Source: a virus (lineage: Duplodnaviria; Caudoviricetes). Taken from it: 64,000 nucleotides of DNA. A program made the translations under genes and the position numbers. Below the pieces are notes generated by a model. It made no database searches. It was not told the origin of the DNA and was given only the letters and a program-made list of their open reading frames with translations. Shown here piece by piece: positions 14,299 through 31,398 of this stretch. The DNA lies in the IMG/VR virus record IMGVR_UViG_3300032233_002657, positions 117,490-181,489 of that record; one strand, given 5' to 3'. Within the stretch, counting starts at the first letter, position 1. Each line of letters begins with the position of its first letter.

Positions 14299-16677
14299 TT
14301 ACACGTTGTTATCTTCAAGGCTTATGCCTTCATCGGGATACGAGTCTATAGTCTTCTGCTTCAGGAACAATAGTAGATCGCCCATCTGCTCAAACGAGTT
14401 TCTAAGATTATCTTCAAGTTCTGGCATATCCTTCTTACCGTACCGGTCTTCAAACTTATCTTTGTGCCAGTAGAAGCTAAACAAAATCCTACCAATCTTA
14501 TCTAGGCCGCCCATGAGGTCTCCTAGATGTCTATCGACCATAGTGTCGTCTCTAACTGACTTTATAAGAGTGCCTATCATAGAAGTATCAAATACTTCTT
14601 TTTGTCCTGACTGAGCGGCGTTGTATCCTATAGCCATGGTCTTAGGATCAGGTAGCCTAGGGTCGTACAAAGCGGTATTAGACTGAAGCGACGTCCCTGC
14701 CATTGCAGGTATAGCCTGCTGCATAGGGTAAGAAGACTGCACGCTTCCTAAAAGAGTTTGTTCCATACCCGTTGGCTGAGTTGGAAATGCTGGAGCCGTG
14801 GTGCCGCCCATCATGCTTGGGTCCATAGGGTCGCCAGGAGCAGCTGACTTTATTAAGTCTCCTGCGTCTTCTTTTACTGGTTTGTGAATTATGTAGTTAG
14901 CAACCTTAAGGGTCTTAGCTTCGTCTAATATAACTCTAGCCTGCTTTTCTCTAAGAGCTACGTCCCTAACCAAGTGTATAAGCGCGTTCTGTGGGTCTAG
15001 CACTCTGCCGTTAATGCTAACTTCAGAGCCAGTGTGCCTTACGTTTAATGAGGCCGTCTTCTGATAAATAGCATGCTGAAGATCGTTAAGATCGCCTGGG
15101 ACTATAGCCCCATCCCCGCAGCAGCTGTCTCCGCTCAGCTTTACAGCTTTAAAATTGCCAGGAATGTAAAGGTCACCGTTAATAGACTTAATTCTCACAC
15201 CTGGCTTGTCAGTTACATATAAATTCTGCCCTGCACCTATGTGAGACATGCCCCCGCTAAAATCACTATAAGCTCCTTTAGCCACGGCAGGAAGGTACTT
15301 TGGTCTAGCTTGAGAAGCGTAATCAAGGTATCGCACCTTGTAGCCACTAGTGCCGTCAGAATCCCCCATTACCTTTAACACTTCAAACGGAACGCTGGCG
15401 TCGCCGGTTTCACTAACAGCTAAATAGACATTCCCCTTTGATAAAGACGAAAGGCTAGAAAGCTCTTCAAAAAACTTGGCAAAGCTTTGGCCGCTATTTT
15501 TACTTTCAGGAGCGTCTTGGCCCCCATCTCTTGGCGGACGTGTAAACAAGTTACCTGGGTGACTGTTAATCCAGTGCTTCTCACCTGTGTAGTTAACTAC
15601 AGTGGCGAAGTCATGGCGCCCTGAAGGGCCATGAGGCATAAGGAAAATTATGGTCTTAAGCATGGAGAAAGGACAAACTAAAAGATCATAGACACCGGTA
15701 GAAGCAGGATTCTCTATTGAGGTAGGTTCCTGCACTTTGTAAGCGATAGCCGTGTCGTCTTTTGTCCTAGCGTCTCTAAATATAACCCCGTCTGTAAGGA
15801 GTTTTTCCTTATCAGCTTTTGGAGAATCCATAACTCCATCTGAAGAAGCGTTGAAACTTCTGATCATGATGGTAAGGGCTTTCTTTTCCTGAGGCTTAAT
15901 GTATACGTCTTCTTCAGACAGAATACCAGGCTCTGGAATGCTTTTAAGCTTATCGACAGCATTCTTTATAAAGTCAGACCCGTAAACTTTTTCAATAGCT
16001 TCTGCCATCTTTGGAAACTGCTGGCATGTACCTATAAGAGCTTTAACTAATTCTTTAAACGCTTGCTTACCATGAGCTGCTTCTTTAGTAAGAAAAGATT
16101 TAAGAGTAAGGGCGTTATTAAACTTTGGATCGTTGGAAGGATTGGTGCAAGCAAACTTAGCAAAGGATCTTACTCCTTCGCGCATCTCGTCTTTATCTAC
16201 TGCTGATGCAAACTTAGCAGGTGGTCGGCTGAAAGCTTGCAGGTCAGGTGAAAGAAATCCTAGTCTAGCCATGTTCTGATCTGTCTTCTTTCCTAAGCTA
16301 GCAGGCTTACGTCGTAGAATGTAGTTAAGCCAGTTTTCTTTAAGTGGCACAAACTGATCTTGGTCTTTAAGGTAGAGCAGCTCATGGCCTTTAAGATCGC
16401 CATTAATAAAAAATACAGGGGCGTAAAGCCATTGAGGCCCAACCTTAAATCCAAACAAGCCAACAGCTTTGGTGTTGTCTTCGTTGCGTTCCATGAGCTC
16501 GAAGCCTACCTCATAGTCGAGTAGGCCTGGGGCTTTGTCTTTTAGATAGGCATGCGCAAGGTTGCTAAATGCCTGTTCAAACTGAACATCGTTTCCAGCC
16601 CCTCCAAGCTCGGCTTTTTTTACGAAGCCTGCAATAGGTGGGAGAGGGTTCAGAAAACTATTACTTTTGTTGCTCAT
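14299..16677 (-). CDS. Large hypothetical virion protein
   Basis: About 792 aa from MSNKS (16677; GAAGG RBS, promoter just upstream); KxA motifs punctuate it (VKKA, AKFA, TKEA, QKTA, IKSA); contains PMDPSMMGG, shared with ORF 19268-19882. Confidence 0.6.
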   Translation of the reverse strand: MSNKSNSFLNPLPPIAGFVKKAELGGAGNDVQFEQAFSNLAHAYLKDKAPGLLDYEVGFELMERNEDNTKAVGLFGFKVGPQWLYAPVFFINGDLKGHELLYLKDQDQFVPLKENWLNYILRRKPASLGKKTDQNMARLGFLSPDLQAFSRPPAKFASAVDKDEMREGVRSFAKFACTNPSNDPKFNNALTLKSFLTKEAAHGKQAFKELVKALIGTCQQFPKMAEAIEKVYGSDFIKNAVDKLKSIPEPGILSEEDVYIKPQEKKALTIMIRSFNASSDGVMDSPKADKEKLLTDGVIFRDARTKDDTAIAYKVQEPTSIENPASTGVYDLLVCPFSMLKTIIFLMPHGPSGRHDFATVVNYTGEKHWINSHPGNLFTRPPRDGGQDAPESKNSGQSFAKFFEELSSLSSLSKGNVYLAVSETGDASVPFEVLKVMGDSDGTSGYKVRYLDYASQARPKYLPAVAKGAYSDFSGGMSHIGAGQNLYVTDKPGVRIKSINGDLYIPGNFKAVKLSGDSCCGDGAIVPGDLNDLQHAIYQKTASLNVRHTGSEVSINGRVLDPQNALIHLVRDVALREKQARVILDEAKTLKVANYIIHKPVKEDAGDLIKSAAPGDPMDPSMMGGTTAPAFPTQPTGMEQTLLGSVQSSYPMQQAIPAMAGTSLQSNTALYDPRLPDPKTMAIGYNAAQSGQKEVFDTSMIGTLIKSVRDDTMVDRHLGDLMGGLDKIGRILFSFYWHKDKFEDRYGKKDMPELEDNLRNSFEQMGDLLLFLKQKTIDSYPDEGISLEDNNV

Positions 16678-16716
16678 GTTCTTAACCTTCCAGGGCTTAG
16701 AAAATAACATAGAGCC

Positions 16717-16762: not shown

Positions 16763-17134
16763 TTATCTAGGGCGCATGTTTAGTATGTTCCTAGAAATAC
16801 TTCCACTTTTTAACAAGTCTATAACAATAGCCAGCTTTTCGTTCGTAGCCATCTTAGCATGTTCTTTACCGGATGTGGGAGTGGAGACGTCTCCACTAGC
16901 CGCCGATACAGCCGCAGCCTGATTGCTTACTGGGGGGAGCGCATTAGATGGAGAAAAAGCTGCCGGCATAGTATTCATAGATTTTATAGGTGAATTTGTA
17001 GAGCCTACGCTTTTAAGGTCGGATATTGGTGCGGAGGCCTGAGGGCCGGTTAGCTTGGGAAGAGTTAAATCCTTGGAAGCACTTACAGAGTTGTTTCCAG
17101 ACCAGTTAGCCCATTTATATATGAACGCGCTCAT
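16763..17134 (-). CDS. Hypothetical Ser/Pro-rich protein
   Basis: 123 aa directly after the RNAP beta'-C gene; carries a perfect palindrome copy. Confidence 0.5.
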   Translation of the reverse strand: MSAFIYKWANWSGNNSVSASKDLTLPKLTGPQASAPISDLKSVGSTNSPIKSMNTMPAAFSPSNALPPVSNQAAAVSAASGDVSTPTSGKEHAKMATNEKLAIVIDLLKSGSISRNILNMRPR

Positions 17135-19057
17135 TTAAAGTACACCGCCATTTGATTCGTCCGGAGAAAGAATATTATTTTTAGCCTGGTTTGTATCATA
17201 ACCTTTTACTGGACCTTTTCTACCGAATTCAACCGACTTAGCCAAAGAAGGTACATACGAAGTTCCTTGCTCGTCGCTTATGGCTCCCCTATGCACGGCT
17301 TGAAGGGTAGACTTCCTCAAATTACTTCCTAGCATTCGAGTCATCCAGTCAGGGTCATGCTGCAGGTTTTCTAGACCTCTGACAAAGTGTGCGTCAAACG
17401 GAGCTGGGTTTTTATGGGTAGTAATCTGGTTAATACCAAACTCTTCAAAATCTTTTACCATCGAAGGCTTTATTTTAGTACCTATAGTGTAATGCAAGGA
17501 GGGCTTCTCTAAGTATTGACCAACAGCTGATTTAGGGGTCATGACCTTATGTCCTTCTCGAGGTTCCCAAGAGTTCTCTATAGCGTCGTAAGGAATGACG
17601 TCGTCTGGGGCGTATTGGTTATACTCCTCATTCATCTTTATGTGGTTTATAAGACCCTTAGACATTATCTCTATATTTCGCCTATTGCCTGACATGCCTG
17701 AGTCTTTCATAGCTGTTTTAAAGGCTGTAACGAATTGTCGCCTTCCTTCGCCTATACCTTTAAACTTTGTAAGCTGTGCTGGGTTTGCTATTCCGTCAGA
17801 CAGCATGTCTCCTGCCTCTACGTTGTCATGCAGTTTCACAGTTAGGCCTACCTGAGGATTAACGTAATGGTCTATGCCGTCAATTCCTATAAACATGCCG
17901 CCGGTTGGAGCAGGCTTGATACTGGTAACCTTTCCATCTCTTTGAGCATGAGTAGCCCAATATGGAGATTGCTTAGGGGATTGCACTAACTGGTTTAGGT
18001 GCTTAAAGCCAGACACAGCCCCTGCGGCTCCGGCTACTCCGCCTGTGTGCTTGGAACTAAGCTGACCTTGGGATATAGGTTCAGATAAAGCCTGCATGGC
18101 GGCTATGCCTACTGAATCACCTGAAGGAGCTAGGCCGCCTCTTTCTCTTACGCCTAGGTCTTTAGAGTAGACCCCACCATCCGCAGCCCCAAAAGCTACA
18201 GGGCTTCTTACTACTATTCTCTTTAGTCCTTTAGCCTTGAGATCTTTAAGAACTCTAGGAGACAGCAAAGTATTCCTGCTGTAGCCCCCAGCGGACATAG
18301 CAAGAAGGGCTCCCTCGTTATCATCGTCATTAAGGTCTACAGGCATACCCCTATTTTCGCCACGAGTAGGGTCAGGATCATCATCCCCTACTACTATCAT
18401 TCTGTGCCCTACCTGATTCAACTGCTTAGAAAAGAACCCGGCGTCCATGGTAGAAAACTTAGTATCTGAAACGCCTTTTCTAGCACCGAATGTGCCTGCA
18501 AAGTATTCAGCTGGGTTTAGCCCTTTAGAGTATGAATTGAATACAGGTATAGGAATCGGGTTATCGTGATGATCAGTGTATAGAAGATCTCCGCCTCTTA
18601 AGCTTTTTAAATTCATAGCCTTACCCCTAGACCCAGACTGTATCTGACGGGCTAGCTGGTTGTTCTCTCTTATGGAGTCGTCAAATATGCCTTTCTCCAT
18701 TGGCTTCTGTGCGGCATTTAGAAGATCTATCATCTTAGTATTTTTAGCGCCTTCGTCGTCTCTGTTATCAGCCATTATTTTAGCAATGGCTATTCTTAGC
18801 TCTGCTTTGCTGTCTATGGAGAACTTTGATTCTCTTAGATCTTTTAGACCAAATGAAAACCCACCGCTTGAGTAGGAAACGTCTCTGCCTACGTCGTACA
18901 GCTTCTTAGATATGTCTCTATATTTTTCTGGATGTTTTTCAGCTATGAGCTGCATTAGCGCAGTTGAAGCCTTAGAATCAAGCGATCTTGAATAGTCCTT
19001 CAGCTCTTCTGGAAGGGCATCATTAACCATGATCTGGCCCACAGTGGTCCTAAGCAT
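17135..19057 (-). CDS. Phage multisubunit RNA polymerase, beta' C-terminal half
   Basis: TTVGQ start, SGSRG, bridge helix GLNPAEYF..TFGARKGVSDTKFSTMDAGFFSKQL, trigger loop GDSVGIAAMQALSEPISQGQLSSKHTGG; all correspond to RpoC motifs. Confidence 0.9.
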   Translation of the reverse strand: MLRTTVGQIMVNDALPEELKDYSRSLDSKASTALMQLIAEKHPEKYRDISKKLYDVGRDVSYSSGGFSFGLKDLRESKFSIDSKAELRIAIAKIMADNRDDEGAKNTKMIDLLNAAQKPMEKGIFDDSIRENNQLARQIQSGSRGKAMNLKSLRGGDLLYTDHHDNPIPIPVFNSYSKGLNPAEYFAGTFGARKGVSDTKFSTMDAGFFSKQLNQVGHRMIVVGDDDPDPTRGENRGMPVDLNDDDNEGALLAMSAGGYSRNTLLSPRVLKDLKAKGLKRIVVRSPVAFGAADGGVYSKDLGVRERGGLAPSGDSVGIAAMQALSEPISQGQLSSKHTGGVAGAAGAVSGFKHLNQLVQSPKQSPYWATHAQRDGKVTSIKPAPTGGMFIGIDGIDHYVNPQVGLTVKLHDNVEAGDMLSDGIANPAQLTKFKGIGEGRRQFVTAFKTAMKDSGMSGNRRNIEIMSKGLINHIKMNEEYNQYAPDDVIPYDAIENSWEPREGHKVMTPKSAVGQYLEKPSLHYTIGTKIKPSMVKDFEEFGINQITTHKNPAPFDAHFVRGLENLQHDPDWMTRMLGSNLRKSTLQAVHRGAISDEQGTSYVPSLAKSVEFGRKGPVKGYDTNQAKNNILSPDESNGGVL

Positions 19058-19059
19058 GA

Positions 19060-19278
19060 TTACCCTCCAAGTGTTATTTTCTTTATTCCCGGTGGTGTTA
19101 TTCCGTTTTGCTCTAAAGTATCTGCAAAACTGGAGTCGGCGGCCGTAACGCAGGTTATTACAGAATCTGAATTATCTAGGAACAAGGCTATAGGGTTATT
19201 TAAGTTGTCGTAAATAACTAGCCTTGTTGCCTTTGCCGGTGGAGTCTTATCAAAAAAATTATGATAATCAAGAATCAT
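19060..19278 (-). CDS. Small hypothetical protein
   Basis: 72 aa, coupled to neighbours; its end supplies the GGAGG RBS of the RNAP gene. Confidence 0.55.
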   Translation of the reverse strand: MILDYHNFFDKTPPAKATRLVIYDNLNNPIALFLDNSDSVITCVTAADSSFADTLEQNGITPPGIKKITLGG

Positions 19279-19882
19279 GTCTATTGGTCTTTCTCAAAAG
19301 GTCCATTATACCAGCTGCTTTTTCAGCAATCTCATGTTTAGAAAAACCTGCTGTCTTTGGGGCTGGTGCTGGTGCTCCAGCGGAAGGATCTCCGCCTTGA
19401 GGCTGAGGTTTACCTTGTGAAGAGTCATCTTTATTCTGGCTTGGGGCTTCGTCAAGAATGTCATGAGGAAGGTTTATGCCTAGGGAAGAATATAGATGGG
19501 TTAACAACTTTTGAATACGGCGCATAAACATTTCAGTGTTCTGCCCGTTATCTGATTTCTTTCCAGCTCCTTTGTTTCCCTTTACTTCAGCTAGAGCTGT
19601 CTGCAGTTCAGACTTAACTACAGCTCTAATTTGTTCAGTAGGGTCTTCTGGAGGAGGCGCGCCCCCCATCATAGAGGGATCCATAGGTGGTGCTCCCCCC
19701 ATCATAGAAGGGTCCATAGGAGGCTGACCGCCCATCATTGATGGGTCCATAGGTGGTGCGCCTGGAGGAGCACCTCCAGCCATAGCCGGGTCCATAGGAG
19801 GTTGGCCGCCGCCCTCAGGGGGCATGAAGGCCGACTTGATGCTCAATTGAGCCTGCTTTAATAGATACTTATTAATTGCCAT
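19268..19882 (-). CDS. Pro/Met/Gly-repeat protein
   Basis: Leader ...LKQA..IKSA, then four PPMDP[AS]M[AM]GG repeats. Confidence 0.6.
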   Translation of the reverse strand: MAINKYLLKQAQLSIKSAFMPPEGGGQPPMDPAMAGGAPPGAPPMDPSMMGGQPPMDPSMMGGAPPMDPSMMGGAPPPEDPTEQIRAVVKSELQTALAEVKGNKGAGKKSDNGQNTEMFMRRIQKLLTHLYSSLGINLPHDILDEAPSQNKDDSSQGKPQPQGGDPSAGAPAPAPKTAGFSKHEIAEKAAGIMDLLRKTNRHDS

Positions 19883-19934
19883 GATAACTCCTAGACACTA
19901 TGGGTTGCTTACATTAAGGCCGCAGTAGAGTACG

Positions 19935-20564
19935 TTACTCGTAGGGCGCTACTTTATTTGGAGTTTTAGGTTTTGCTTTTTTCCCGCTGATACCTTGTAT
20001 TCTGTTCTTCTCTGCATCAGGGTCTGTAAGATCTGAACCTGCAAATGAAGGTTTAGTAGGTTTATCGCCTTTTCTAGAAATTTGATTGGTAGTTGGCTTA
20101 GGTACTAAATCATTAACTATACTTCCGTCTTCGTCTTTTGTAGTTCCAGCTCCTAAACCTATTTCACCGCCACTATTAACTTTGTCCTGCATGGCATTCA
20201 TAAAGCTTCCAGCGTATGGGCTTACAGGAGCTTTAGGACCGAGAAGACGTTTTAAATACTCATTTCCAGTTCCTGCTAGATCCACTCCAAAGTGTTGAGC
20301 ACCGGCGCCACCTAAGCCGCCTACAGCGCCACCACCTACAGCACCAGATAAGAGACGAGATATAACACCTTGCTCGCTGTCGCCAAATAAAGCATTGCCA
20401 AGCCCGCCTACTAAGGCACCGCCGCCAGCCCCAAGGAGCCCGGCCTGAAGCCTAGGGTCCAAGCCGTTGTAAGCGTCCATGTACCCGCTTGCCTTATACA
20501 TGCTTCCAGTTTTGTTACCCAAGTACTGAGCTAACTCTATAGCTTTATTGTTTTGGTACTGCAT
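19935..20564 (-). CDS. Glycine-zipper protein with leader-like N-terminus
   Basis: NKAIELAQYLGNKTG resembles the family-A leader; GAGGGALVGGLG...GAVGGGAVGGLGG hairpin. Confidence 0.55.
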   Translation of the reverse strand: MQYQNNKAIELAQYLGNKTGSMYKASGYMDAYNGLDPRLQAGLLGAGGGALVGGLGNALFGDSEQGVISRLLSGAVGGGAVGGLGGAGAQHFGVDLAGTGNEYLKRLLGPKAPVSPYAGSFMNAMQDKVNSGGEIGLGAGTTKDEDGSIVNDLVPKPTTNQISRKGDKPTKPSFAGSDLTDPDAEKNRIQGISGKKAKPKTPNKVAPYE

Positions 20565-20656
20565 CTTGCTCTCCCATGTAAAATAAAATACTTATATAAG
20601 ACTATAACTTACTACTTACGCCCTTAGCTACCTCATTATTTAAAAACAGTGTGTAA

Positions 20657-23600
20657 TCAAGGCTTAGCGGGAGCCGAAGCCGCTTGGTTTGCCGGGGTAG
20701 GTTTGTAAAAACTATCTACGCCTCTAAGGCCTCCATAAGCCCCCAGGCCCATGCCCGTTACCGAACCTAAATCCCTGATAAGCTGATACCAGTCTTTATT
20801 TTTTTTAAGGCTATCCTTGGAAACAGTAGACTTTAATATCTTATCCGTGAGCCAATCGCCTCCTAGCATACCGGCAAACCCGCCGCCTACTAAGCCAGCC
20901 CCGTGCTGCATAGATTTAATTCCAGTATACTTCAAGGCATCTTTGAGGTCCTCGTTTCCTTCTTCTGTAGCAAAAGGAACTCTAAATTGCTGTAGGATCT
21001 TATGAGCTAATGATTTAGTCTCGTCATTTACGGTTGTGGTTCTAAGTATCGGCCGGCCTTTTTCATCAAGCTTAGTTTCAGTAATAAGCGGCTGAGCATT
21101 TCTTAGAGCTTCGGTTTCTTTTGGGCCCATAGCAGTAGATTCTGGATGCGACTGGCTAAGTTCATCAAGAGTAGGTTTACGTGTTACCTGCGCCCCAGAC
21201 ACCGAAATCTTTTTGTCGGTGTTTAAGAATGGGGCTTTAAAAGCTTCAGTAAACGACGCGACAGGGTTAGCGTTAACGGCTAGTTGGGCTTGAGTGTGAG
21301 GCATATACGCCCACCTTATTCCTGAAGAAACGCCATCTTGAGCCAGCGACGTAATCCCTGGCATGTTTACAGCTCCGGTTCCTAGGATAGCAGCGTCTGT
21401 AAGAGGGCTTGGGCCATACATGTGTTTTTGCACAGCTACAGGCTGTGCTTTTCTTAAAGCATCATACTTTTTGTACTTTGTAGCAATTGAAGGAAGCCCG
21501 GTCGTGTATGACAGTAGGGTATTCCCCGCAGTTTGTGAAAGCACTCTATCCCAGTCAGTCTGCTGTTTGCCTGTATTATAACCTCTAGATGGAGAGACAG
21601 GGTCAAAGCCTTCTTCGCCGGCTACGGGAAACGCTTGTTGCTTAGGGACTACTCCTCCAAGATACTGGGCCCCCGTTAATCCTGTACCAAAAGCAATGTG
21701 CTTTGCAAGTGACTTGCCCCCATTGTACCAGGTAGAACCTAGTAAAAGTGACTTAGCCGCATCTACAAATCCTGCTGCTTTAACCGCGGTAGAAGGCCTG
21801 AGTGCATGGACCGCTGCTGCGACACCGGCGGCGCCTCCGCCTATTTCTCCTACTAGCTTTAACCACCACCTTCTATCTTCTTGCCTTCTTCTATCATCAT
21901 ACTCATCTCCCTCTTCGTCGGGAAAAATGTAATTTGCTATTCCGCCCATAGCCCTATTGCCTAAATAAGAACCGGCTAGTCCCCCGGTTACATGCGGTAT
22001 TAAAGCTTTTCCTAAATCCTTTAAGCTAGGGTCTGCAACTTCGTCTCCGCCTAGTGACTTTATAACATGGTTTGCAGCAGGCACTATGTATTCTTTATGT
22101 GCTTTGGCGGCATATTGAGCAGCGTTTGCATTCGCAGTGTCTATCATTTTTACAAGAGATTTATTGCCGTAGAAATCCCCTAAAGATTTAAAAGGAGTTT
22201 GAATCCACTTGTCTACTTGTTCTTTTTGTCTGGGGTCTCTAGCTCTAGCCGCAAATTCTGAAACGTCTCCTTGAGTCTTGCTTACGTACTCACCGTAGGC
22301 CGGACCAATCCCCGAACCAAATATTCCATTCTTGTATTCCGGAGCCATTATGCCATGTCTAATTATTCCAAAACCCCCTAAGCCTGACCCAAGTGATCTT
22401 ACTGGAGCATTCCAGACCGCGGTACCGGCTCTAGGAGTGGCCATAACCGCTCCCCATAGCGCAGAGTTAGCCTTAGATTTTTCAAGGGTATGCTGGGGTA
22501 CATTCGGGTACACTTTCTTTTGGTAAGCGTCTTCAAGATTATATCCAGCAGTTGCGCCAAGGGCCATCCGCCCAGCCGTAGTAACAGAAGGTAAATAGGG
22601 TTTTATAACATCTAAGAGACCTGATGATTTTTCAATCCCGTTATTACTTTTAATTTTATTGCTACCGACTTCTTTTAATATATTAAGGAACTGCTCATTC
22701 AGCTTTTGCTTACGATCAGCGGCGTTTATTAAATAGTCATCCGTCGCTGGTAATGGGTCAGCTTTTATACCTACGTTCCTTAAAAAGGATCTTAATCTAC
22801 CTGGAGCCGTTCGGGCTATGTATCTCTCTATTAAAACTTTACGATCTTCAGGGGCTAAGTGCTCATGGCTATCAAACCTAAGCGCCCTGCCTTCGCTTTG
22901 GCTGCTTCTTGCTGTGTTCCAGTGTGGGTCTAGAAGTTGAACTAACTTGGTGCCTTTAAAAGATAACCCTTCGGTACCGGACGGTCCGAGAAGAGCAACT
23001 TTAAGTTTATCTGTGTTGTAGTCGTCTACTAACTTCTTTCTTTCCTTGTCAGATAAGTTGCCTGTGAACGAAGCTGCGGGTATACCAGCTTTATTAAGCG
23101 CATCTTGATAGGGGGATAAACCAGCGTCTATAAAATTAGAGAACACTAAGGCCTTGCCTTGTGGGTCTTTTTCAAAGAGTGATTTTAGGTTGCCAAGAGC
23201 TGCGGTAAGTTTGGGAGACTGCTCAAACGCCTTTGAAACATCTTTATTGCCGCGCATGAACGGAAGAGTAGATAGACCGACCTGCCTTAGACCAGTCATA
23301 AAGCTGGTCATCTTTGTAATTTCATCTTGAGTCAGCGGATAGTTCATCTTTAGCTTCCACCTGAGCACTGTAGGAAGTTGCCCCATCATGTAGCTATTAA
23401 GGTCGGTCTGGTCCCTGCCCATCTCTACTACAACGTCTTTTCTATTTATCTCAGCCTTAGGAGCCAGCGGGGCAAAGTAATCAACCTTATCCTTTAATTT
23501 ACTTTTTAGCTCGTCCTGATTTATAATAGCTGGCTCTTCCGCTGAGGAATCAAATAAGGCTTTATACCAAGGCTTATCAGGAATTTCATCTACGTATCTT

Positions 23601-24145
23601 TTACTAAACTCTTCAGGAGTTACGCTATCTCCAGTAAGAATGTTATAAGGAACCGAGAAGTCGCTCGGGTCGTTTACTACTGGGGTTCCTGTAAGAAGTA
23701 CGACCTGCCTAGCTTTACGGGCAGCTTCCATAAGGTTCTTAGTCTGGGAAGATTTTGGGTTTCTAAACCTATGAGCTTCATCTACTAATATGGATTGCGG
23801 GTTTGCGATCTCAGTTCCGTTACCTACGGCAGTGTGACTCATAACGCTACTAGGAGTTGCCGTTGCAGGATCTATAAACCTTTCTTGTTCTTTTCTAAGG
23901 TTGTTACGCAGGGCTGCGGGCACTACGGCTGTGTAAGGTATCTTAGTGGCGTCAGCAGCGGCTAACCCGCTAAGGGTCTTGCCTGATCCTAGGCTGTGAT
24001 AAAGAAGCAGCCTCGCTTTGTTCTGTGTGTCTAACTGCTTTTGGACTTTGTCCACTACTGCCGTTTGATGCGGCTGAAGCGTTATACCGGGCTGTAATTC
24101 AGCCTGCTTCAATACTTCCAACTCGTTCGATAAAGGAGTGCTCAT
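20657..24145 (-). CDS. SNF2-like SF2 helicase/translocase fused to two Gly-rich membrane-like modules
   Basis: HSLGSGKT (motif I), LVDEAH (II), LLTGTP (III), GTEGLSF, DPHWN and QSEGRALR (VI) in about the first 500 aa; the remainder has Gly-rich hydrophobic helices. Confidence 0.85.
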   Translation of the reverse strand: MSTPLSNELEVLKQAELQPGITLQPHQTAVVDKVQKQLDTQNKARLLLYHSLGSGKTLSGLAAADATKIPYTAVVPAALRNNLRKEQERFIDPATATPSSVMSHTAVGNGTEIANPQSILVDEAHRFRNPKSSQTKNLMEAARKARQVVLLTGTPVVNDPSDFSVPYNILTGDSVTPEEFSKRYVDEIPDKPWYKALFDSSAEEPAIINQDELKSKLKDKVDYFAPLAPKAEINRKDVVVEMGRDQTDLNSYMMGQLPTVLRWKLKMNYPLTQDEITKMTSFMTGLRQVGLSTLPFMRGNKDVSKAFEQSPKLTAALGNLKSLFEKDPQGKALVFSNFIDAGLSPYQDALNKAGIPAASFTGNLSDKERKKLVDDYNTDKLKVALLGPSGTEGLSFKGTKLVQLLDPHWNTARSSQSEGRALRFDSHEHLAPEDRKVLIERYIARTAPGRLRSFLRNVGIKADPLPATDDYLINAADRKQKLNEQFLNILKEVGSNKIKSNNGIEKSSGLLDVIKPYLPSVTTAGRMALGATAGYNLEDAYQKKVYPNVPQHTLEKSKANSALWGAVMATPRAGTAVWNAPVRSLGSGLGGFGIIRHGIMAPEYKNGIFGSGIGPAYGEYVSKTQGDVSEFAARARDPRQKEQVDKWIQTPFKSLGDFYGNKSLVKMIDTANANAAQYAAKAHKEYIVPAANHVIKSLGGDEVADPSLKDLGKALIPHVTGGLAGSYLGNRAMGGIANYIFPDEEGDEYDDRRRQEDRRWWLKLVGEIGGGAAGVAAAVHALRPSTAVKAAGFVDAAKSLLLGSTWYNGGKSLAKHIAFGTGLTGAQYLGGVVPKQQAFPVAGEEGFDPVSPSRGYNTGKQQTDWDRVLSQTAGNTLLSYTTGLPSIATKYKKYDALRKAQPVAVQKHMYGPSPLTDAAILGTGAVNMPGITSLAQDGVSSGIRWAYMPHTQAQLAVNANPVASFTEAFKAPFLNTDKKISVSGAQVTRKPTLDELSQSHPESTAMGPKETEALRNAQPLITETKLDEKGRPILRTTTVNDETKSLAHKILQQFRVPFATEEGNEDLKDALKYTGIKSMQHGAGLVGGGFAGMLGGDWLTDKILKSTVSKDSLKKNKDWYQLIRDLGSVTGMGLGAYGGLRGVDSFYKPTPANQAASAPAKP

Positions 24146-24148
24146 GGG

Positions 24149-27100
24149 TTACCCTACTATTACGACTTTATCGTTTGCGGATATTTCGCCTGCCTTGTAG
24201 GCACGTACGGCGTCCATCTTTGTTTTGAAGTATTTTTCAGGTCGCTTAGACGCTTCAGAGGTAGCCGTGTACAGCCCACCCTGGTACTCGTTCATAGGAA
24301 GCTGATGAACTTTGAAGTTTTTTACGGCAAGAAGATTACGGCTGGGTAGCATCTTTTCTAAAGCATCTTTAACAGACTCATCAGTTGTGGGCACATGGTA
24401 GTTCATGGCGTCGCCATCAAAGTCTGCTCCGAACCCTTTAACTATAATAGGAGGAACTTGAAGAGTACTTCCTTTAACAAGCTGAGGCCTAAACGCCATA
24501 ACCCCGTAACGGTGAAGCACTGGAGCTCTTGTTATGATTACAGGTCGAGCATCCATTTCTGCAAGCATTGCATCCATGGCCATCTTGTCTTTACTTTCTA
24601 TAAGATCGGCTGCTTTAAACCGATCCACTCCTCGTCGAATAAGCCTTCTCATGATAAAGGGTTTATACACAGCCCAAGCTCTGTCTTCCGGAAGGCCAAC
24701 TTGATCCATGTCTAAGTCTGGGTTTGGAGTAATAGCCGCTCGGCCAACCATGTCCACGTTAGAGGCTAACAGCTTTCTTTGAAGCACTCCAAACTTAGGG
24801 TTATCTCCAAATACTTGTTTTAATATTCCTTTTACGTTCTTTTGTTCTAGCTTAGGGTTACTAGTATCGGCCATGCCGGTTACGCCCTTGAAAGAGTCGT
24901 ATACAGCCAGTCTATGATCTGACAAATCTGTAAAATGGTTGGATGCTTCCTTCATCTCAGAGTTAGAATCTATGAGCTCCTTATAAAGGTAGTTAGCATC
25001 TCCTACCATAGGAAGGCCGCTGCTCTGCATTATGCTGACTGGCCTAAACAAAGGAGGAAGCACTGGCACTTTATCAAGAACCCAATCAGAGGGGTGCATT
25101 CCCAGATCCTTAGACGTTTTAAGATACCCTAGCTTTCTAACAGCTGTGTCTCTGTAAGACTTTTTACCTGACGCTATCTGCGCTCTAGCTTTTAGTATCT
25201 CCTGATCGACGTTCATCTTTTTAAGGGCCCCAGATATAGCTCCTGGCCCTTTAATTCCATTTAGCTCTTCTCTGCCCGCTAGCACATCCCTAAACTTATT
25301 CTCTGTTAATCCTAATACTCTGCGTATGGGCTCTTCCATAACTGGATTAGGCATAGGTTCATGCAGCTTTATGTGGCTCCACATAGTGCCGCCGTGGCCA
25401 CCAGTTAAAGTAGGGTCAAACAGGCCCCCGCCTACAGGCTTCATGCTGCCAGACCAATCAACTGTATCTGATCTTGTAATCTCTCTAGTACCAGACAAAG
25501 AATCGACGTCTGCGCTGGTCATAGCCATAAGCTGCGTCTTAGAACCTTTACGCACAGGGTTGATTCCGGCTGCCTGAAGCTGGGACATGAATTTACGATA
25601 GGTCAAAGGAACTCTTGGTATGGGCAGAGGCTTACCAGTCATGAACGCAGCCCAGTAGTCTTCGTTTTTCTGACCTCGAATAGCTCCTGCATCTCTTAAT
25701 ACTTCGTGGGCTCCGTGAGAAAGAAGCGCGTTGACGTCCATAAGGGCCATACGCTTTGATCCTGTCTCTCCACCTTTAGCAGGAGTTTCTTCAGCTGTGT
25801 ACCCGCTGGATACTCCTCTACCTTGGCCTTTTGATTCAGAGGTGTGATGCAGCTTCATAAAAAATCTGTTACCAGTGAATATACCTTTTATCTTTCTCCC
25901 AGTGTCGGGGTCTTCTATATCTTCCATATCGCTTAGATTATGCTTCTTTAGTTCGTTGATCGCATACTCTGTAAGATCCTCTATGTTATCAAAGTCTTTT
26001 ACGGCATACCTTTTACCCGTCTTCTCGGATATCTTGCCTAAAGCAGCTTCCACCATTTGGCCAGGGTTTGTACGAGTGATGATACCTAAGGGATTGAGCA
26101 GAACCTCAAAAGGTCTGCCGTCCGCTCCTTTAGGCATTTTGTCGTCTGGGACTACGGTGGATATTACACCTTTGTCGCCGTATCGTCCTGACAGCTTATC
26201 CCCTTCCTTCATAGGGACAAGACTTTTTACACTTACTGCATAACCTTTCTTAGTAGCAGTAACATCGGTGACTATTCCCTCATTCTCGTGATCCCAAGTT
26301 ACGCTGGCATCGTTAAAGCCAGTCCTAGATCTACCCACTTGTTGATTGTGCGCTCTAGATAATATGTTGGCTTGGAATATTAAAGGGTCGCCGGTTCGTA
26401 CGACGGTGCCTGGCTTAACTACTCCATTGTCATCCATGTTGCCTACATGTTCTTTGGTGTAGTTAGAAGGGAACAACGTAAGAAAAGCTCTTTTGCCTTG
26501 CTTAGTGTCTGGGCCAAACTCAGTTTCATGCTGGTACATATGCTCTGAAGTAAGCCTTTTTGCTGCCCCTTCTGATATGACTATGGCATCTTCAAAGTTG
26601 AAGCCTTTATAAGGTATGTAGGCAGTTCGTAAGTTAGTACCTAAAGCAGTAGTACCTTTATCATCGGTGTAGTTTGACTTAGCCAGAAGGTCGCCTTTGC
26701 CGACTACGTCCCCAACAGACACTGAAGGCGTGTTGTGAAGAAACGTCTTTCTGTTAAACGGAAGATTGTTATAAAGCTCGGTCTTATGAAGCTGGCCATC
26801 TTCTCCGCGTATGTGAATCTCGTCCCCGTCAACCTTTATGACTTGGCCCGCGTTCTGAGATCTAACTGCGCCCATATGAGAGCCATACTCTTCTTCGTAT
26901 GACTTATCTTCTTCATCGGGCATACCAGATTGGACGTAAGGCGACTGAGGGTTCTGCAAGGGCAGGGCCTGAGTAAGCATTCTCGCGCCCATCATTACGC
27001 GCTGGCCTTTAGTGGCGCTTTTTAAAGGTATAAGATTAGCCAATTGATTAAACGAGCTTTCCATTCTGGGTAGCTCATAGGCTACTTCGTCCCTGTTGAC

Positions 27101-28603
27101 GTATTTTATTTTACCGCCTGAAAGAGCCGCTATTTTAATGTTATTAGGGTCTCTTAGCTGATTAGGGAATGCTACTATCTCCTTGGTCATTTCTTCTGGA
27201 GTTCTCCACACATCCTTATTAGTGGAGACGTCTCTAAAGCTGCCGTACACCTTACCATCTAAACCTTTACGGGAGTTGATGGCGATGCGGCTGTCCACGC
27301 CTACCTTTAATGACTCTGGAGTAAGCAGAGGGTCAATAAACCCAAAGTGAGAAGGCTGCACGTTTCTAGCTTCTTCAGGAACTGACTGCAGGGATGGTAT
27401 ACCGCCTTCACCTAGTCTGGTTACTCTTGTAATTTGATTTAGTAAATCAGCTGGATTTACTTCCTCAAGAGGCTGCCCCATTCCGCTGGTAGAGATAGCT
27501 CCGTTTACATGGGAGTCTAGAAACCCAGGGGAGAACGAGCTTAAATTTTGCTTGAAGCTAGCCTTCCAAAGCAGAGGTCGCATAACTCTGTGAGAGGACC
27601 TAACTCTTTCAGAGAATAAATCTTCAGGCCCTATCATCGATTGATAGGCCATGGCATCTCTGTCGTCTGGGTCTGACTCTCTTCTGTGAACAGCTAATAT
27701 CTTTTTAGTTGCAGCTAGAATTGAGTCGGCTGAGACATTCTTATACGGCTGCCCAAGAGTTTTAAAATTAACGTCGGGGTCCATCTCCATTTTGGCTATG
27801 GCGTCTAATACAGACTGCTTTCTGCTTTCTGGAGTAACTATGTCGCCTGGTTTAGACTTACCGATCTTACTAAATATCTTTTCCATGTGCTGCGGGTCAT
27901 CAGTGGAGGCATTAGAGTTATATATGTCATTACCCCAAGCTTCCCGTAGCTGCTTATCAGACGCCCCTAAAGCTTTTAGAAGAGGAGTTATGGGTACAGA
28001 CGACTGTCCAAACTTTATAGAGAATACGCCCTTTTCCGGATCCAGCGCATATTTATGGGATGCTCCTTTTCCCGGCATAATGTTAGCGTGGCTTTCAACT
28101 TCGCCGCTGTGCGTTATTCTTGTAAAGACTCCAGGCTTAAGCCTCATTTGATTGGCTAGAGTGTATTCTGTGCCGTTAAGAATGAAAGTACCTCTATCAG
28201 TGAGATAGGGTATTTTAGCCAAGGTTGTTCGTTTGCTTTCTATGATATCGCCGGTAACACTGTCTGTGAGGTTAAGCGTGCCTTTAAGGCTTCTGTTTAG
28301 CGTCTGGCCTTTAAGTATAGCTTCCTTCTGCGCTTTTATAGATTTGGTTTCTTCGTTGTCGCCCCACCCTACATCTGTAACACTAAGCGTGTGCCTTTGA
28401 TTTACAATAGGTTCAAATTTAGAGGCAGTGGCTAGAACCCCGCCAAATATAGCGGATCTAGTAGCTTTCATGTCGTCAAACTTACGCATGGTTGGGTCAG
28501 CCATGGGCGCAAGCGGCATGGGCGCAAGCTTTGGCGGCGAGCTCAGCGCAGGAGTTGAAAGAACTCCTAAAGAGCTATCGTTATCTGGTAGAACTCCAGC
28601 CAT
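24149..28603 (-). CDS. Phage multisubunit RNA polymerase: beta fused to beta' N-terminal half (catalytic)
   Basis: Beta motifs GTFILNG, GFNFEDAI, GDKLSGRYGDKGVIS, LLNPLG..RTNPGQ, MKLHH; then beta' motifs GLFD, VPVLPPLFRP, TRAPVLHR and catalytic GADFDGD (24410-24430). Confidence 0.92.
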   Translation of the reverse strand: MAGVLPDNDSSLGVLSTPALSSPPKLAPMPLAPMADPTMRKFDDMKATRSAIFGGVLATASKFEPIVNQRHTLSVTDVGWGDNEETKSIKAQKEAILKGQTLNRSLKGTLNLTDSVTGDIIESKRTTLAKIPYLTDRGTFILNGTEYTLANQMRLKPGVFTRITHSGEVESHANIMPGKGASHKYALDPEKGVFSIKFGQSSVPITPLLKALGASDKQLREAWGNDIYNSNASTDDPQHMEKIFSKIGKSKPGDIVTPESRKQSVLDAIAKMEMDPDVNFKTLGQPYKNVSADSILAATKKILAVHRRESDPDDRDAMAYQSMIGPEDLFSERVRSSHRVMRPLLWKASFKQNLSSFSPGFLDSHVNGAISTSGMGQPLEEVNPADLLNQITRVTRLGEGGIPSLQSVPEEARNVQPSHFGFIDPLLTPESLKVGVDSRIAINSRKGLDGKVYGSFRDVSTNKDVWRTPEEMTKEIVAFPNQLRDPNNIKIAALSGGKIKYVNRDEVAYELPRMESSFNQLANLIPLKSATKGQRVMMGARMLTQALPLQNPQSPYVQSGMPDEEDKSYEEEYGSHMGAVRSQNAGQVIKVDGDEIHIRGEDGQLHKTELYNNLPFNRKTFLHNTPSVSVGDVVGKGDLLAKSNYTDDKGTTALGTNLRTAYIPYKGFNFEDAIVISEGAAKRLTSEHMYQHETEFGPDTKQGKRAFLTLFPSNYTKEHVGNMDDNGVVKPGTVVRTGDPLIFQANILSRAHNQQVGRSRTGFNDASVTWDHENEGIVTDVTATKKGYAVSVKSLVPMKEGDKLSGRYGDKGVISTVVPDDKMPKGADGRPFEVLLNPLGIITRTNPGQMVEAALGKISEKTGKRYAVKDFDNIEDLTEYAINELKKHNLSDMEDIEDPDTGRKIKGIFTGNRFFMKLHHTSESKGQGRGVSSGYTAEETPAKGGETGSKRMALMDVNALLSHGAHEVLRDAGAIRGQKNEDYWAAFMTGKPLPIPRVPLTYRKFMSQLQAAGINPVRKGSKTQLMAMTSADVDSLSGTREITRSDTVDWSGSMKPVGGGLFDPTLTGGHGGTMWSHIKLHEPMPNPVMEEPIRRVLGLTENKFRDVLAGREELNGIKGPGAISGALKKMNVDQEILKARAQIASGKKSYRDTAVRKLGYLKTSKDLGMHPSDWVLDKVPVLPPLFRPVSIMQSSGLPMVGDANYLYKELIDSNSEMKEASNHFTDLSDHRLAVYDSFKGVTGMADTSNPKLEQKNVKGILKQVFGDNPKFGVLQRKLLASNVDMVGRAAITPNPDLDMDQVGLPEDRAWAVYKPFIMRRLIRRGVDRFKAADLIESKDKMAMDAMLAEMDARPVIITRAPVLHRYGVMAFRPQLVKGSTLQVPPIIVKGFGADFDGDAMNYHVPTTDESVKDALEKMLPSRNLLAVKNFKVHQLPMNEYQGGLYTATSEASKRPEKYFKTKMDAVRAYKAGEISANDKVVIVG

Positions 28604-28604
28604 T

Positions 28605-29642
28605 TTAGTCCTTATTAATTAGCCGCTTTAAAGCGTTTCTAGCGGGCTTTATAGAATTTTTAGCTTTGTTAATTCTTACAGGAACTGGAACAGAGTAGAT
28701 GGGCATGCCTTCAGCATTGCGCCTTGAAAGAAACTCATTAAGGTATCGCTCAGAAGCTAAACGCTCTGGATCGTTTTTCTTTGCTTCTCTATACCCTTTT
28801 ACGGTTCCTGCAGTGCCTAACCCTAAAGTTAAGGCGCCTAAAAGTCCGGCGTACCCTTTAAATGCTTTGTCAGCATTGTTAAGCCCGTAGGCCAGGCCTC
28901 CTAGCGCGTTTGAACCAGCACCTACAACTCCTTTGCCTAAGGATAAAGCGCCTGACATTAAGTCAGCCCCTAGGTCAGCAGATTTTTCAAGGTTGTTTTG
29001 CCCTACGCAAGCCTCAGCTAGCTTCTCTAGGTCTGCAGCTAAAGAAGACATCTCAGAACTTGCTGCCTTTTCTGCTACGGCCCTTTCAGCCGTAACAGGT
29101 CGGTTTAATCGGTTGGAGTGTGACTCTATGAGAGCTTCCCCAAACTCTTTCTTGGCTTCTTCTAGCTCTGTTAAATGATCTTCTTTTATTTTGTTCTTTA
29201 AAACGTAGTTCAGCAGCATGTTGCTGCCTATAGCAGGACCGGCGGCCGAAGCTACAATAGCTGGTAAATAGTAAGGGTTAGTTAAAGATTTTAAACTAAA
29301 CGCAGTCTTTACATCGCTATGAGATGATTTCTTTTCTGTGTCCTTATCTGGAGCTTCGGCCAAGTCTTGACTAGGCTTAAATGTTTGTAGCTTTTTAGCT
29401 TTTCCTTTAAACCTTTTCTTTCTTGTTTTTTCGAAGAAGTCACTTGTAGAAGGCAGAGCCTCTTGGCCGGGAACCGGTACTTCTATTACAGGGGAGCCTA
29501 TGCTCATAACTTTATCTCTAAATAGGGCGCCAGGTCTAAGGTATTTGCTCAGCGCTACAGCAGATCCTCCAAGAAGGCTAGCTAGGCCCAACCGCTTCAT
29601 GTCGAAGATTTCTTCGGGACTGAACAATGATTTCTTAAGCAT
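28605..29642 (-). CDS. Hypothetical membrane-like virion protein
   Basis: 345 aa; hydrophobic Gly-rich segments following VKTA and EKSA motifs. Confidence 0.55.
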   Translation of the reverse strand: MLKKSLFSPEEIFDMKRLGLASLLGGSAVALSKYLRPGALFRDKVMSIGSPVIEVPVPGQEALPSTSDFFEKTRKKRFKGKAKKLQTFKPSQDLAEAPDKDTEKKSSHSDVKTAFSLKSLTNPYYLPAIVASAAGPAIGSNMLLNYVLKNKIKEDHLTELEEAKKEFGEALIESHSNRLNRPVTAERAVAEKAASSEMSSLAADLEKLAEACVGQNNLEKSADLGADLMSGALSLGKGVVGAGSNALGGLAYGLNNADKAFKGYAGLLGALTLGLGTAGTVKGYREAKKNDPERLASERYLNEFLSRRNAEGMPIYSVPVPVRINKAKNSIKPARNALKRLINKD

Positions 29643-29996
29643 CTAACTTCTCCTGTTTGGCGCCAGCTTTCCTTGAACGTCAGCCCACTCCATGTGAATG
29701 CTAAGCTTTTTATCTTCAGAGATAATCTTAGTCCTGTCGATTATAACACAGGCCCTGTTGGCGGCTAAGTCTCTAATCTTCGTGTATTCCTTAAGGTCTT
29801 CAGGATTACTAAGGTCAAATATCTTTACTTTAACGTCATACTGAAGAGGTATATTTTCATACTCCTCTTGAGTAGTGTTTGGGGCCATTGGGCCTCCTAA
29901 AATAGGAAAACCCTGAGACGTCGTCCCAGTGGTCTGCCTATATTTAACTCCTACACCACCTAATCCAAACTGACTTAAAATAGCGCTGTCTCTCAT
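29643..29996 (-). CDS. Hypothetical protein
   Basis: 117 aa ORF in operon. Confidence 0.55.
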   Translation of the reverse strand: MRDSAILSQFGLGGVGVKYRQTTGTTSQGFPILGGPMAPNTTQEEYENIPLQYDVKVKIFDLSNPEDLKEYTKIRDLAANRACVIIDRTKIISEDKKLSIHMEWADVQGKLAPNRRS

Positions 29997-30006
29997 GGTC
30001 GTCTTT

Positions 30007-30969
30007 CTAATATCGGGTTATTCCGGACATACCTCTATCACGAGCTCTTCGACGTCTTGTGAGTTCGGCTTGCCGTTTAATAGTTTCGGCTTGCCTATCG
30101 TATTCATTTATAATTTCTTCTTTCAAAAGATCATCTTTATCTGGCAGTGGAGCTTTAAAAGCTTCGTGAATGCCAGGGCCTACTATGTTCTTACCGGCGT
30201 AATAACCGCCGCCAGCTGTTAGTGCTGCGGTTCCTAAAGCAAGAGCCGGTACTGTGCGTATTAGTTCGCCTAAGGCTGCCAAGTTTGCCTTCTTCTCTAC
30301 AGCATGCAAAGCCTGCTTTACTCTTAACTTTATCTCATCGATAGTAAGTCCGTCTTCTATGCACTTAGCTAGAAAGGCTACTTTGAACATTTGTTTGTCA
30401 GTCATAGCTGATCCTTGCTTATCGGCCATAGGGGCTGACGTGGGTGTAGCTGAAGGGGCTGGGGTAACAGAGGGAGCGATAGGGGCAGGGGCTGAGCCTA
30501 CTGCGCCCATAGGGGCCGGGGTTGGAGACGGGCTAGGAGCTGGAGATGGCACTGCTGGCGGTACGTACCCAGGAGACCCTTCGACTAAATCATTTTTGTG
30601 AGGCAACCATTTTTGATTTTTTCTGTCCCAGCCTATGTTGGTATCTAGCGCTTTAGTCTTCTGTGGATTACCGGCAAACCTTTTATAATCAGAGGCGTAG
30701 GTTTGGAATTTCATGTTATCAGAATTTTTGTTAGCTGCCCCTAGCTGCAACCCAAGAAGGGTAGCATGATAACTGTTAGGGTTGTCCCACTCTGCCTGGG
30801 GTATTCCAAACTGATCTGTTATCTTTTTTTGCAGGCTAGGGTGGAGATCCGAGAAGTTCGCCCGCCCTAGCTCTACTCCTCCGTTATTGGCGGCGTACCT
30901 GGCGGCTGAGGCATGGACCTGATCGGGTGTTGATGGTCTTCTTTGTGGGACGGTTACTGGGTTAGGCAT
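30007..30969 (-). CDS. Hypothetical protein with Pro-rich linker and TM-like segment
   Basis: 320 aa; PAPSP linker, FKVAFLAKC...VEKKA module, then a hydrophobic helix. Confidence 0.55.
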   Translation of the reverse strand: MPNPVTVPQRRPSTPDQVHASAARYAANNGGVELGRANFSDLHPSLQKKITDQFGIPQAEWDNPNSYHATLLGLQLGAANKNSDNMKFQTYASDYKRFAGNPQKTKALDTNIGWDRKNQKWLPHKNDLVEGSPGYVPPAVPSPAPSPSPTPAPMGAVGSAPAPIAPSVTPAPSATPTSAPMADKQGSAMTDKQMFKVAFLAKCIEDGLTIDEIKLRVKQALHAVEKKANLAALGELIRTVPALALGTAALTAGGGYYAGKNIVGPGIHEAFKAPLPDKDDLLKEEIINEYDRQAETIKRQAELTRRRRARDRGMSGITRY

Positions 30970-30973
30970 GATG

Positions 30974-31342
30974 TTATCCTAGTATAATTCCTGAGTTAGT
31001 TACGCCCTTCTCTACGCTAGCCCCGGTTGACCAAATCTTTCGGTTGTCGTGCGCTAATTGCTTAGCTACTCTAGGATCCGTAGGATCCCCTTGCTCTTTG
31101 GCTTCCTGTACACACAGCATAATATCCCTAGCTGCTGAAATCAACTTTTGCTTGTCGTCATAGTGTTGAGCCCTTGAGGCTTCTTCAAATAAAGCCTTAG
31201 CTCTCTTGCGCATGACCGCCGTCGGTTCTACTTTAGTTGACCCGTCTCGCCCGTCGTAAATGTTAACTAGACCGTGCTCGGCCCAAAACTCTATTTGGTT
31301 ATACTTGTAAGCTTTTTTAGTATTTATAACCGGAATATCCAT
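30974..31342 (-). CDS. Hypothetical protein
   Basis: 122 aa, GAGG RBS, own promoter candidate. Confidence 0.6.
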   Translation of the reverse strand: MDIPVINTKKAYKYNQIEFWAEHGLVNIYDGRDGSTKVEPTAVMRKRAKALFEEASRAQHYDDKQKLISAARDIMLCVQEAKEQGDPTDPRVAKQLAHDNRKIWSTGASVEKGVTNSGIILG

Positions 31343-31369
31343 GTGGTCCTCTTTTCCTATTAATTAAGA

Positions 31370-31398
31370 ATAATACACTAATCTAACTAGCATGTCAC
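31370..31398 (-). promoter_or_regulatory. sigma70-like promoter upstream of the RNAP-containing operon
   Basis: Minus strand GTGACA-17 nt-TATTAT. Confidence 0.45.

Follow-up and report, generated by a model that had tools for sequence, protein, structure and literature searches.

Probable packaging and ejection of a cysteine-free bacterial-type RNA polymerase module in a phage related to Salmonella phage Arash

Why would a phage encode a multisubunit RNA polymerase (RNAP) together with an SNF2-family ATPase, and not a single cysteine in any of the chains? The question is raised by the last 64 kb (G000:C1:117490-181489; hereafter the window) of a 181,489-bp phage contig from IMG/VR with a CheckV completeness of 88%, in which three large minus-strand genes encode a β subunit that continues into the N-terminal catalytic half of β′ (β-β′N, 24149-28603, 1484 residues), an SNF2 fusion protein (20657-24145, 1162 residues) and the C-terminal half of β′ (β′C, 17135-19057, 640 residues). 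An initial annotation had regarded these proteins as a virion-packaged, injected transcription machine and had suggested that the absence of cysteine could mark ejected proteins throughout the genome. We consider packaging and ejection of the RNAP module to be the best explanation of what is found at this locus, with a probability of about 0.7.

The phage is uncultured, has a genome of about 200 kb and belongs to the family that contains Salmonella phage Arash. It is a large family, with some 1000 β′C clusters (50% identity, E below 1e-30) and with cultured members that infect Salmonella and Vibrio. We compared the contig with two related contigs, G002 (93% complete) and G003 (98%), and with the complete Arash genome. 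The window has a uniform GC content of 44-47% and carries nearly all of its genes on the minus strand, and tblastn against Arash identified the capsid protein (5706-6635), a sheath-like protein that runs past the window start and homologues of gp218 and gp222, so that the window represents the virion-gene half of the genome. The RNAP genes share the strand of the capsid, sheath, gp218-like and gp222-like genes and lie between them.

Translation with table 11 bears out the zero count for both RNAP chains and the SNF2 fusion, 3286 residues in all. The cysteine-free run in fact comprises six adjoining open reading frames (ORFs), namely the three large ones and others of 209, 204 and 123 residues, with no cysteine in 3822 residues and a 72-residue ORF (19060-19278, one cysteine) as its sole interruption, and the wider block 16763-32716 holds 5 cysteines in 5234 residues. 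Since cysteine accounts for 1.36% of the 58,049 residues encoded genome-wide (1.81% over the left 98 kb and 0.75% over the virion half), the probability of finding none in 3286 residues is about 4e-20, and it is about 7e-8 at a rate of 0.5%, which is typical of the non-zinc cysteines of E. coli RpoB and RpoC. TGT and TGC codons are missing in frame from all three genes (0, 0, 0) but occur 44+53, 17+47 and 20+20 times out of frame, that is 40-97 times per gene, and the absence of cysteine therefore acts at the protein level; an avoidance of TGY at the nucleotide level is ruled out by these normal out-of-frame counts. As the initial annotation had stated, other enzymes of the window do contain the residue, with 20 cysteines in RNR (32808-35069), 4 in AsnB (48111-49934) and 15 and 11 in the transferases. 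External virion proteins are cysteine-bearing as well (31 and 53 in fibers, 10-17 in baseplate proteins), and 2 are found in the capsid protein. At the far end of the scale from the RNAP module stands a 478-residue protein with 53 cysteines (11%), encoded beside the fiber genes at genome positions 68305-69741, about 48 kb upstream of the window.

Judged by its sequence, the window enzyme is a bacterial-type β/β′ multisubunit RNAP with intact catalytic motifs. β-β′N is a full β joined to a β′ portion that reaches just beyond the Mg site, aligning with E. coli RpoB 83-1336 and RpoC 160-548, and it matches Pfam Rpb2_6 (PF00562, Rpb2 domain 6 with the β double-psi β-barrel; residues 584-931, 7e-51) and Rpb1_2 (PF00623, 5.5e-21). 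The β′ Mg motif reads GADFDGD, and 22 homologues show no variation at its aspartates D1394, D1396 and D1398. β′C carries the bridge helix and trigger loop (Rpb1_5, PF04998, 8.8e-19), covers positions 548-1048 of rpoC_TIGR and aligns with E. coli RpoC 633-939 and 1180-1261. The curated NCBIfam cut-offs for rpoB and rpoC equivalogs are missed by a wide margin (at best 340 bits against 5372, and 332 against 896), which points to a divergent phage lineage and not to a captured host gene. The best of these matches, at 340 versus 5372 bits, is to PRK09603, the model for the fused β-β′ of the Helicobacter/Wolbachia type, while β′N matches positions 183-552 of 619 in rpoC1_cyan and so ends near the cyanobacterial γ + β′ split; the window split point nevertheless lies about 70 residues earlier than the cyanobacterial one, and the window enzyme differs in having lost both zinc sites and all cysteines.

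Gene architecture varies among the relatives. In G003 β-β′N is found in two ORFs of 1067 and 598 residues about 250 bp apart (L027; G003 52126-57372), making this a candidate intron, intein remnant or true split. Most β′C homologues are 1000-1450 residues long and have a C-terminal extension of 400-800 residues that the 640-residue window protein does not have (P0121-P0270; G003 46105-50466), and in one of them (P0246) β′C is fused to SNF2 and NUDIX domains.

The loss of cysteine includes residues with a structural role in other RNAPs. Eight of the 15 cysteines of E. coli RpoC are zinc ligands, belonging to the N-terminal Cys4 ribbon and the Zn-II site of β′, and neither site is present in the window enzyme. 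The ribbon is deleted, about 84 residues standing in place of E. coli β′ 1-160, and the family consensus does not have it either. None of the four Zn-II ligands is kept: an acidic and proline-containing insertion stands where E. coli has C814, and C888, C895 and C898 have given way to Ala, Tyr and Leu, respectively.

The cysteine-free state is furthermore conserved. The initial annotation had named two cysteine counts as checks, one in homologues and one over all ORFs of the genome. In the first of these, 93 of 120 homologues of β-β′N (52-99% identity) proved to have no cysteine and 9 to have one, and among the best 150 of about 1000 β′C cluster representatives (E below 1e-30) no cysteine was counted in 70 and a single one in 16. 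The cysteine-rich homologues carry inteins and are 300-700 residues longer. About 85 such insertions could be delimited at some ten sites; nearly all start with Cys and end in Asn, the residue directly following is always Ser or Thr and never Cys, and most intein-bearing homologues have zero cysteines outside their inteins. As these cysteine-rich elements are spliced out and the extein residue is Ser or Thr, the spliced proteins remain cysteine-free. Inteins are very common in both RNAP chains of the family, with up to three per gene (P0020-P0117, P0125-P0270), and the window genes contain none. In a distant clade (32-35% identity; 80 IMG/VR loci) everything is fused into one chain of about 2050 residues that typically has exactly four cysteines in the arrangement C-x(about 60)-C-x6-C-x2-C, which align with E. 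coli C814, C888, C895 and C898, and the same four are carried by Arash gp216 and by Vibrio phage D69. Since the remaining cysteines thus correspond to the Zn-II ligands, the rule of the family is that no cysteine is allowed unless zinc-bound, and the clade of the window has gone one step beyond.

The gene between the two RNAP genes tells a similar story. Residues ~15-496 of its product form an SNF2-family ATPase (Pfam Helicase_C, SNF2-rel_dom and ResIII; PHROG 62 'DNA helicase', 1e-36) with 33% identity to Arash gp217, and they are followed by a Gly/Ala-rich C-terminal region of 660 residues that is predicted to be helical. For this region Pfam and PHROG gave no domain, the ESM Atlas feature search no usable match, BLAST against all fetched proteins only the self match and AlphaFold2 (666 residues, 6 homologues) no usable model (mean pLDDT 38, pTM 0.26). 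Six close homologues have the same architecture and are all cysteine-free, and overall 60 of 119 SNF2 homologues have no cysteine, among them proteins of 1350-1680 residues, several others having only CxxC pairs or inteins. In distant homologues the SNF2 core is joined to LigD phosphoesterase (LigD_N), DNA ligase, SET, NUDIX, C39 peptidase, ferritin or HAD domains, and in one instance to β′C. A helicase core with varied effector domains across relatives is what defines the injected polyvalent proteins that have been described for jumbo phages alongside helicase-RNAP linkage (PMC7824862), and the SNF2 fusions with their changing cargo resemble these. The best solved relative of the SNF2 protein is vaccinia NPH-I (6rfl_Y, 1.2e-8), with only the C-terminal helicase lobe covered by the match. 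Vaccinia packages a multisubunit RNAP into its virion accompanied by NPH-I as a packaged SNF2 ATPase (PDB 6RFL), which makes for a functional parallel to the window; it is however a eukaryotic virus, and direct descent is unsupported.

It may be argued that RNAP subunits are poor in cysteine anyway and that zero was reached by drift in one lineage, the more so as E. coli RpoB has only 7 cysteines in 1342 residues and RpoC 7 that do not bind zinc. We find this highly improbable, since about 90 lineages, with divergence down to 52% identity, have kept zero, since the inteins of the very same genes are cysteine-rich although the residue after them is never Cys, and since the effector domains fused to the SNF2 protein are cysteine-free too. 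From the pattern in these alignments we can conclude that the cysteine-free trait is under selection.

What the selected trait serves is suggested by where else it is found. The count over all ORFs gave 24 of 75 cysteine-free ORFs of at least 100 residues in the virion half versus 5 of 84 elsewhere (Fisher p = 2e-5), and in G003 seven of the ten cysteine-free ORFs of at least 250 residues are located inside 29 kb around the RNAP genes, the eighth being the tape measure. In an orthologue table of the two related contigs and Arash the proteins that are cysteine-free throughout the clade are β′C, the RNAP exteins, a 1575-residue tape-measure-like protein and a 436-residue protein, while replication, metabolic, baseplate and fiber proteins retain cysteine. 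As the external virion proteins keep theirs, the pressure acts on only some of the proteins of the virion.

The genome also encodes just one such polymerase. Profile searches with PF00562 and PF00623 returned this β/β′ locus only, and tblastn with the window chains and E. coli RpoB/RpoC found one locus each in the contig, Arash, G002 and G003; the second, cysteine-containing RNAP envisaged in the initial annotation was accordingly not found by Pfam or tblastn in the contig, G002, G003 or complete Arash. A single-subunit RNAP (PF00940) was not detected in the contig either, in a weak search in which 14 control genomes were also without the family. With one RNAP per genome, later stages of infection must be served by the same enzyme or by the host RNAP. 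A candidate partner is a cysteine-free protein of 275 residues encoded among the baseplate genes (genome 101418-102245, some 16 kb upstream of where the window begins), which is a homologue of the sigma-like Arash gp10, itself detected in Arash virions. It gives weak matches, far under the cut-offs, to RpoD_Cterm (3e-8) and PHROG 351 (6e-10), and searching the genome with Pfam models of sigma regions 2 and 4 gave no match.

The closest known systems are those of Arash (gp206 and gp216, helicase gp217, sigma-like gp10; OQ632216, PMC10585845) and of Vibrio phages D69, D148 and D181, which have the same two-chain RNAP layout as the window. They likewise have an SNF2 helicase, a sigma-like protein, a location among virion genes and one RNAP per genome, and they share the depletion of cysteine (1/1525, 4/606 and 0/472 in Arash; 2/1527 and 4/609 in D69). 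Differences are that identity to the window proteins is just 24-33%, that the four Zn-II cysteines and one or two free ones persist in Arash and D69 where the window has none, and that the helicase gene of the window is positioned between the two RNAP genes and fused to the 660-residue Gly-rich region. Mass spectrometry of Arash virions yielded 128 unique peptides and 3516 spectra for gp206, the highest of all proteins, and 40 unique peptides for gp216, 38 for gp217, 36 for gp218 and 32 for the portal, compared with 2 each for ligase and primase (PMC10585845). Comparable numbers of spectra per residue (1.9-2.4) were obtained for gp206, gp216, gp217 and gp218, which suggests that these are present in roughly equal amounts. 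The available text of the report does not mention cysteine or zinc sites (PMC10585845).

These observations bear on whether the RNAP is packaged at all. It could instead be an intracellular enzyme whose cysteines were lost on other grounds, for example to withstand oxidative or thiol-reactive stress during infection or to become independent of zinc, and this would be in agreement with the loss of both zinc sites and with the fact that the only RNAP of the genome must be active inside the cell during much of the infection cycle. The remaining intracellular enzymes of the phage nevertheless keep normal or high cysteine contents (1.81% in the non-virion half), the Arash homologues give the most abundant mass-spectrometry signals of the virion, and in three genomes the cysteine-free genes are grouped with virion genes, all of which makes a purely intracellular enzyme rather improbable.

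It should however be mentioned that several points weigh against packaging and ejection. The available text on Arash also lists many non-structural enzymes in the virion preparation, 116 of 252 annotated coding sequences being detected (PMC10585845), and presence in the virion applies to the Arash homologues, which are 31% identical, so that packaging in the window phage is an extrapolation from them. Neither a shared leader of the kind described below nor a recognizable capsid-targeting signal was seen on the RNAP chains. As the sole RNAP, the enzyme must also transcribe middle and late genes, which excludes a purely injected early role unless host RNAP takes over. The gp218 homologue (14299-16710) and the capsid protein, with 5 and 2 cysteines respectively, are likely virion proteins that contain the residue, and the phiKZ virion RNAP is ejected with 16 cysteines in 2614 residues, from which it follows that cysteine loss is not required for ejection. 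The initial proposal of a virion-packaged, injected transcription machine is thus partly supported, by the conservation of the trait, the location among virion genes, the Arash virions, the precedents of N4, DEV and T7 and the equally cysteine-free tape-measure-like protein of the three compared genomes of the clade.

We infer the following course of events. A single bacterial-type RNAP would be assembled from β-β′N and β′C and be associated with the SNF2 ATPase and the sigma-like factor; these proteins would be produced late and packed in the capsid, ejected through the tail together with the DNA, and would then transcribe the early genes without the host enzyme. Selection would have eliminated every free thiol from the ejected proteins, with relatives tolerating only the four zinc-bound cysteines of β′ Zn-II. 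The likely reason is that the proteins spend a long time in an oxidizing extracellular particle and have to traverse tail channel and envelope in an at least partly unfolded state, in which a disulfide would obstruct their passage or refolding. As the Zn-II site is replaced as well in the clade of the window, refolding there would need no zinc.

Precedents for such a course exist in other phages. In the N4-like phages cysteine is suppressed family-wide in the ejected proteins (N4 gp50-52, DEV gp71-73), which has been explained by their passage through the periplasm (PMC11445570). That the N4 virion RNAP has no cysteine, as the initial annotation had noted, is stated in the same paper, which cites Kazmierczak 2002. 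N4 and DEV therefore share with the window a transcription enzyme with suppressed cysteine that is virion-packaged and ejected, putatively so in the case of the window, but N4 gp50 is a single-subunit T7-like polymerase of about 3400 residues from a podovirus, a zinc motif is predicted to persist in DEV gp71, and no sequence homology to the window was found in the PF00940 search. T7 gp14, gp15 and gp16 leave the capsid via the tail and span the envelope, and they have 1 cysteine in 196 residues, 0 in 747 and 0 in 1318, compared with 2-5 in the T7 tail proteins and terminase; they differ from the window RNAP in not being polymerases and show no homology to it. The virion RNAP of phiKZ (gp178, gp149, gp180, gp80) is of the multisubunit β/β′ type like the window enzyme and has an SF2 helicase gene linked to its genes (PMC7824862). 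It is packaged and ejected, as the window RNAP putatively is, and it differs in having β and β′ divided into four or five chains, a second, non-virion RNAP (18 cysteines in 1887 residues over four of its subunits) and no sigma, the window enzyme being much closer to bacterial RpoB/RpoC.

Among these comparisons there is also room for a packaged RNAP in which the avoidance of cysteine reflects storage, that is the cross-linking of free thiols at high density beside DNA in an oxidizing particle outside the cell, and not envelope passage, unfolded ejection being optional in that case. The cysteine-rich external proteins (fibers with 31 and 53, baseplate proteins with 10-17) would fit this, and so would the zinc-bound cysteines of the relatives, which speak for an avoidance of reactive thiols rather than of cysteine itself. 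We nonetheless regard storage as an unlikely sole reason, since the inner-body and virion RNAP proteins of phiKZ are stored likewise and contain cysteine, since the tape-measure-like protein is equally cysteine-free though located in the tail and not the head, and since the ejection proteins of T7 and N4 show the same trait.

The same comparisons set the limits of the trait as a marker. The notion that cysteine-free proteins are universally ejected ones is ruled out by the phiKZ RNAP and by the baseplate-J protein, which is cysteine-free here by chance, its orthologues having 3-5 cysteines. Considering also the zinc-bound cysteines of the relatives and the gp218 homologue, absence of cysteine is neither necessary nor sufficient as a genome-wide marker of ejection.

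Several smaller cysteine-free proteins, all encoded on the minus strand, surround the RNAP genes or lie elsewhere in the window, and those of 60363-62930, 31406-32716, 10475-11488 and 19935-20564 had correctly been listed as such before. Between β′C and the SNF2 gene are a 209-residue protein with two glycine-zipper stretches (19935-20564) and a Pro/Gly/Met-rich protein of 204 residues (19268-19882), whose homologues (L021, L028, L072) are likewise located between two RNAP genes and are all cysteine-free. A 123-residue ORF (16763-17134) is found immediately downstream of β′C, followed by the 803-residue homologue of Arash virion protein gp218 (14299-16710; tblastn to Arash 142735-143115), which with its 5 cysteines is an exception within the module and has 2-9 in its orthologues. 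On the other side, four ORFs of 345, 117, 320 and 122 residues with one cysteine each (28605-31342) precede the RNAP gene, and beyond these lies the 436-residue protein (31406-32716), which has a glycine-zipper stretch and no cysteine in G000, G002 and G003. Further away are a protein of 337 residues with a glycine-zipper stretch between a protease-region gene and the head genes (10475-11488) and one of 855 residues (60363-62930) for which no homologue was found in G001-G003. Pfam and PHROG gave nothing for the cysteine-free products of the ORFs at 60363, 31406, 10475, 42551, 43687, 39502, 19935 and 16763 or for the 1575-residue tape-measure-like protein.

Seven small proteins (53673-59414, minus strand) share two types of N-terminal leader, four of them resembling MN+FEKAAxFGAxMGK and three MRNFNKLANLHxxFFKR, with unrelated bodies behind, and two have glycine-zipper stretches. 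Six are cysteine-free, as had been claimed, provided that the ORF at 58818-59414 starts at the internal Met where the shared leader begins, which is probably the case; the seventh (53673-54281) has 4 cysteines. The leaders are possibly capsid-targeting signals or protease-processed propeptides, and the seven proteins are candidates for internal or ejected proteins. Glycine-zipper stretches (runs of G-x2-3-G-G/A-x1-3-G) are found in 10475-11488, 19935-20564, 28605-29642, 31406-32716, 55217-55681 and 56368-57162, hence almost only in proteins with no cysteine or nearly none (28605-29642 has a single one), and outside the fiber genes no cysteine-rich protein was found to have them. On these grounds the glycine-zipper proteins may be ejected proteins that insert into or act on membranes.

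Two further features of the genome deserve mention. Exact copies of a 14-bp palindrome, TGGAGACGTCTCCA, number 14 across the 181-kb contig, which is far more than chance would give, and the palindrome is conceivably a regulatory or protein-binding site; the copies in the window are at 9368, 16882, 32257, 38748, 45380, 53200 and 62603, and seven further sites lie upstream in the genome. A 174-residue protein (35133-35657, minus strand) has a lipoprotein-type signal at its start (…VVFGTAC GG…) and may be a spanin or an exclusion lipoprotein.

Returning to packaging and ejection of the RNAP module, avoidance of cysteine in ejected proteins has already been published for the N4-like phages, and the present case extends it to another enzyme class rather than introducing a new concept. 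New here are the bacterial-type multisubunit enzyme, the graded loss of Zn-II and the cysteine-free helicase-effector fusions. A more far-reaching reading, which we put forward tentatively and think doubtful in its entirety, is that a very large and almost entirely uncultured family packs a whole bacterial-type machine, in which a fused core is joined by a sigma-like factor and by an SNF2 motor with effectors to deliver, and threads it into the host. There it would refold without zinc, and the same enzyme would also serve all later stages of infection. No other cellular-type multisubunit RNAP is known that needs no structural metal or thiol, so the enzyme would be unique in this respect, and the absence of free cysteine would predict the ejected proteins of the family.

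If packaging and ejection are indeed the explanation, ejected status would be predictable from sequence within this family by the rule that no cysteine occurs except metal-bound, and the rule would flag the polymerase, the helicase-effector fusions, the tape measure and small glycine-zipper proteins without known family. The family is large and has cultured Salmonella and Vibrio members, and the idea is therefore testable. For the polymerase itself, the finding shows that the β′ Zn-II site, otherwise near-universal in enzymes of the cellular type, is replaceable, with the relatives that retain only its four cysteines as natural intermediates.

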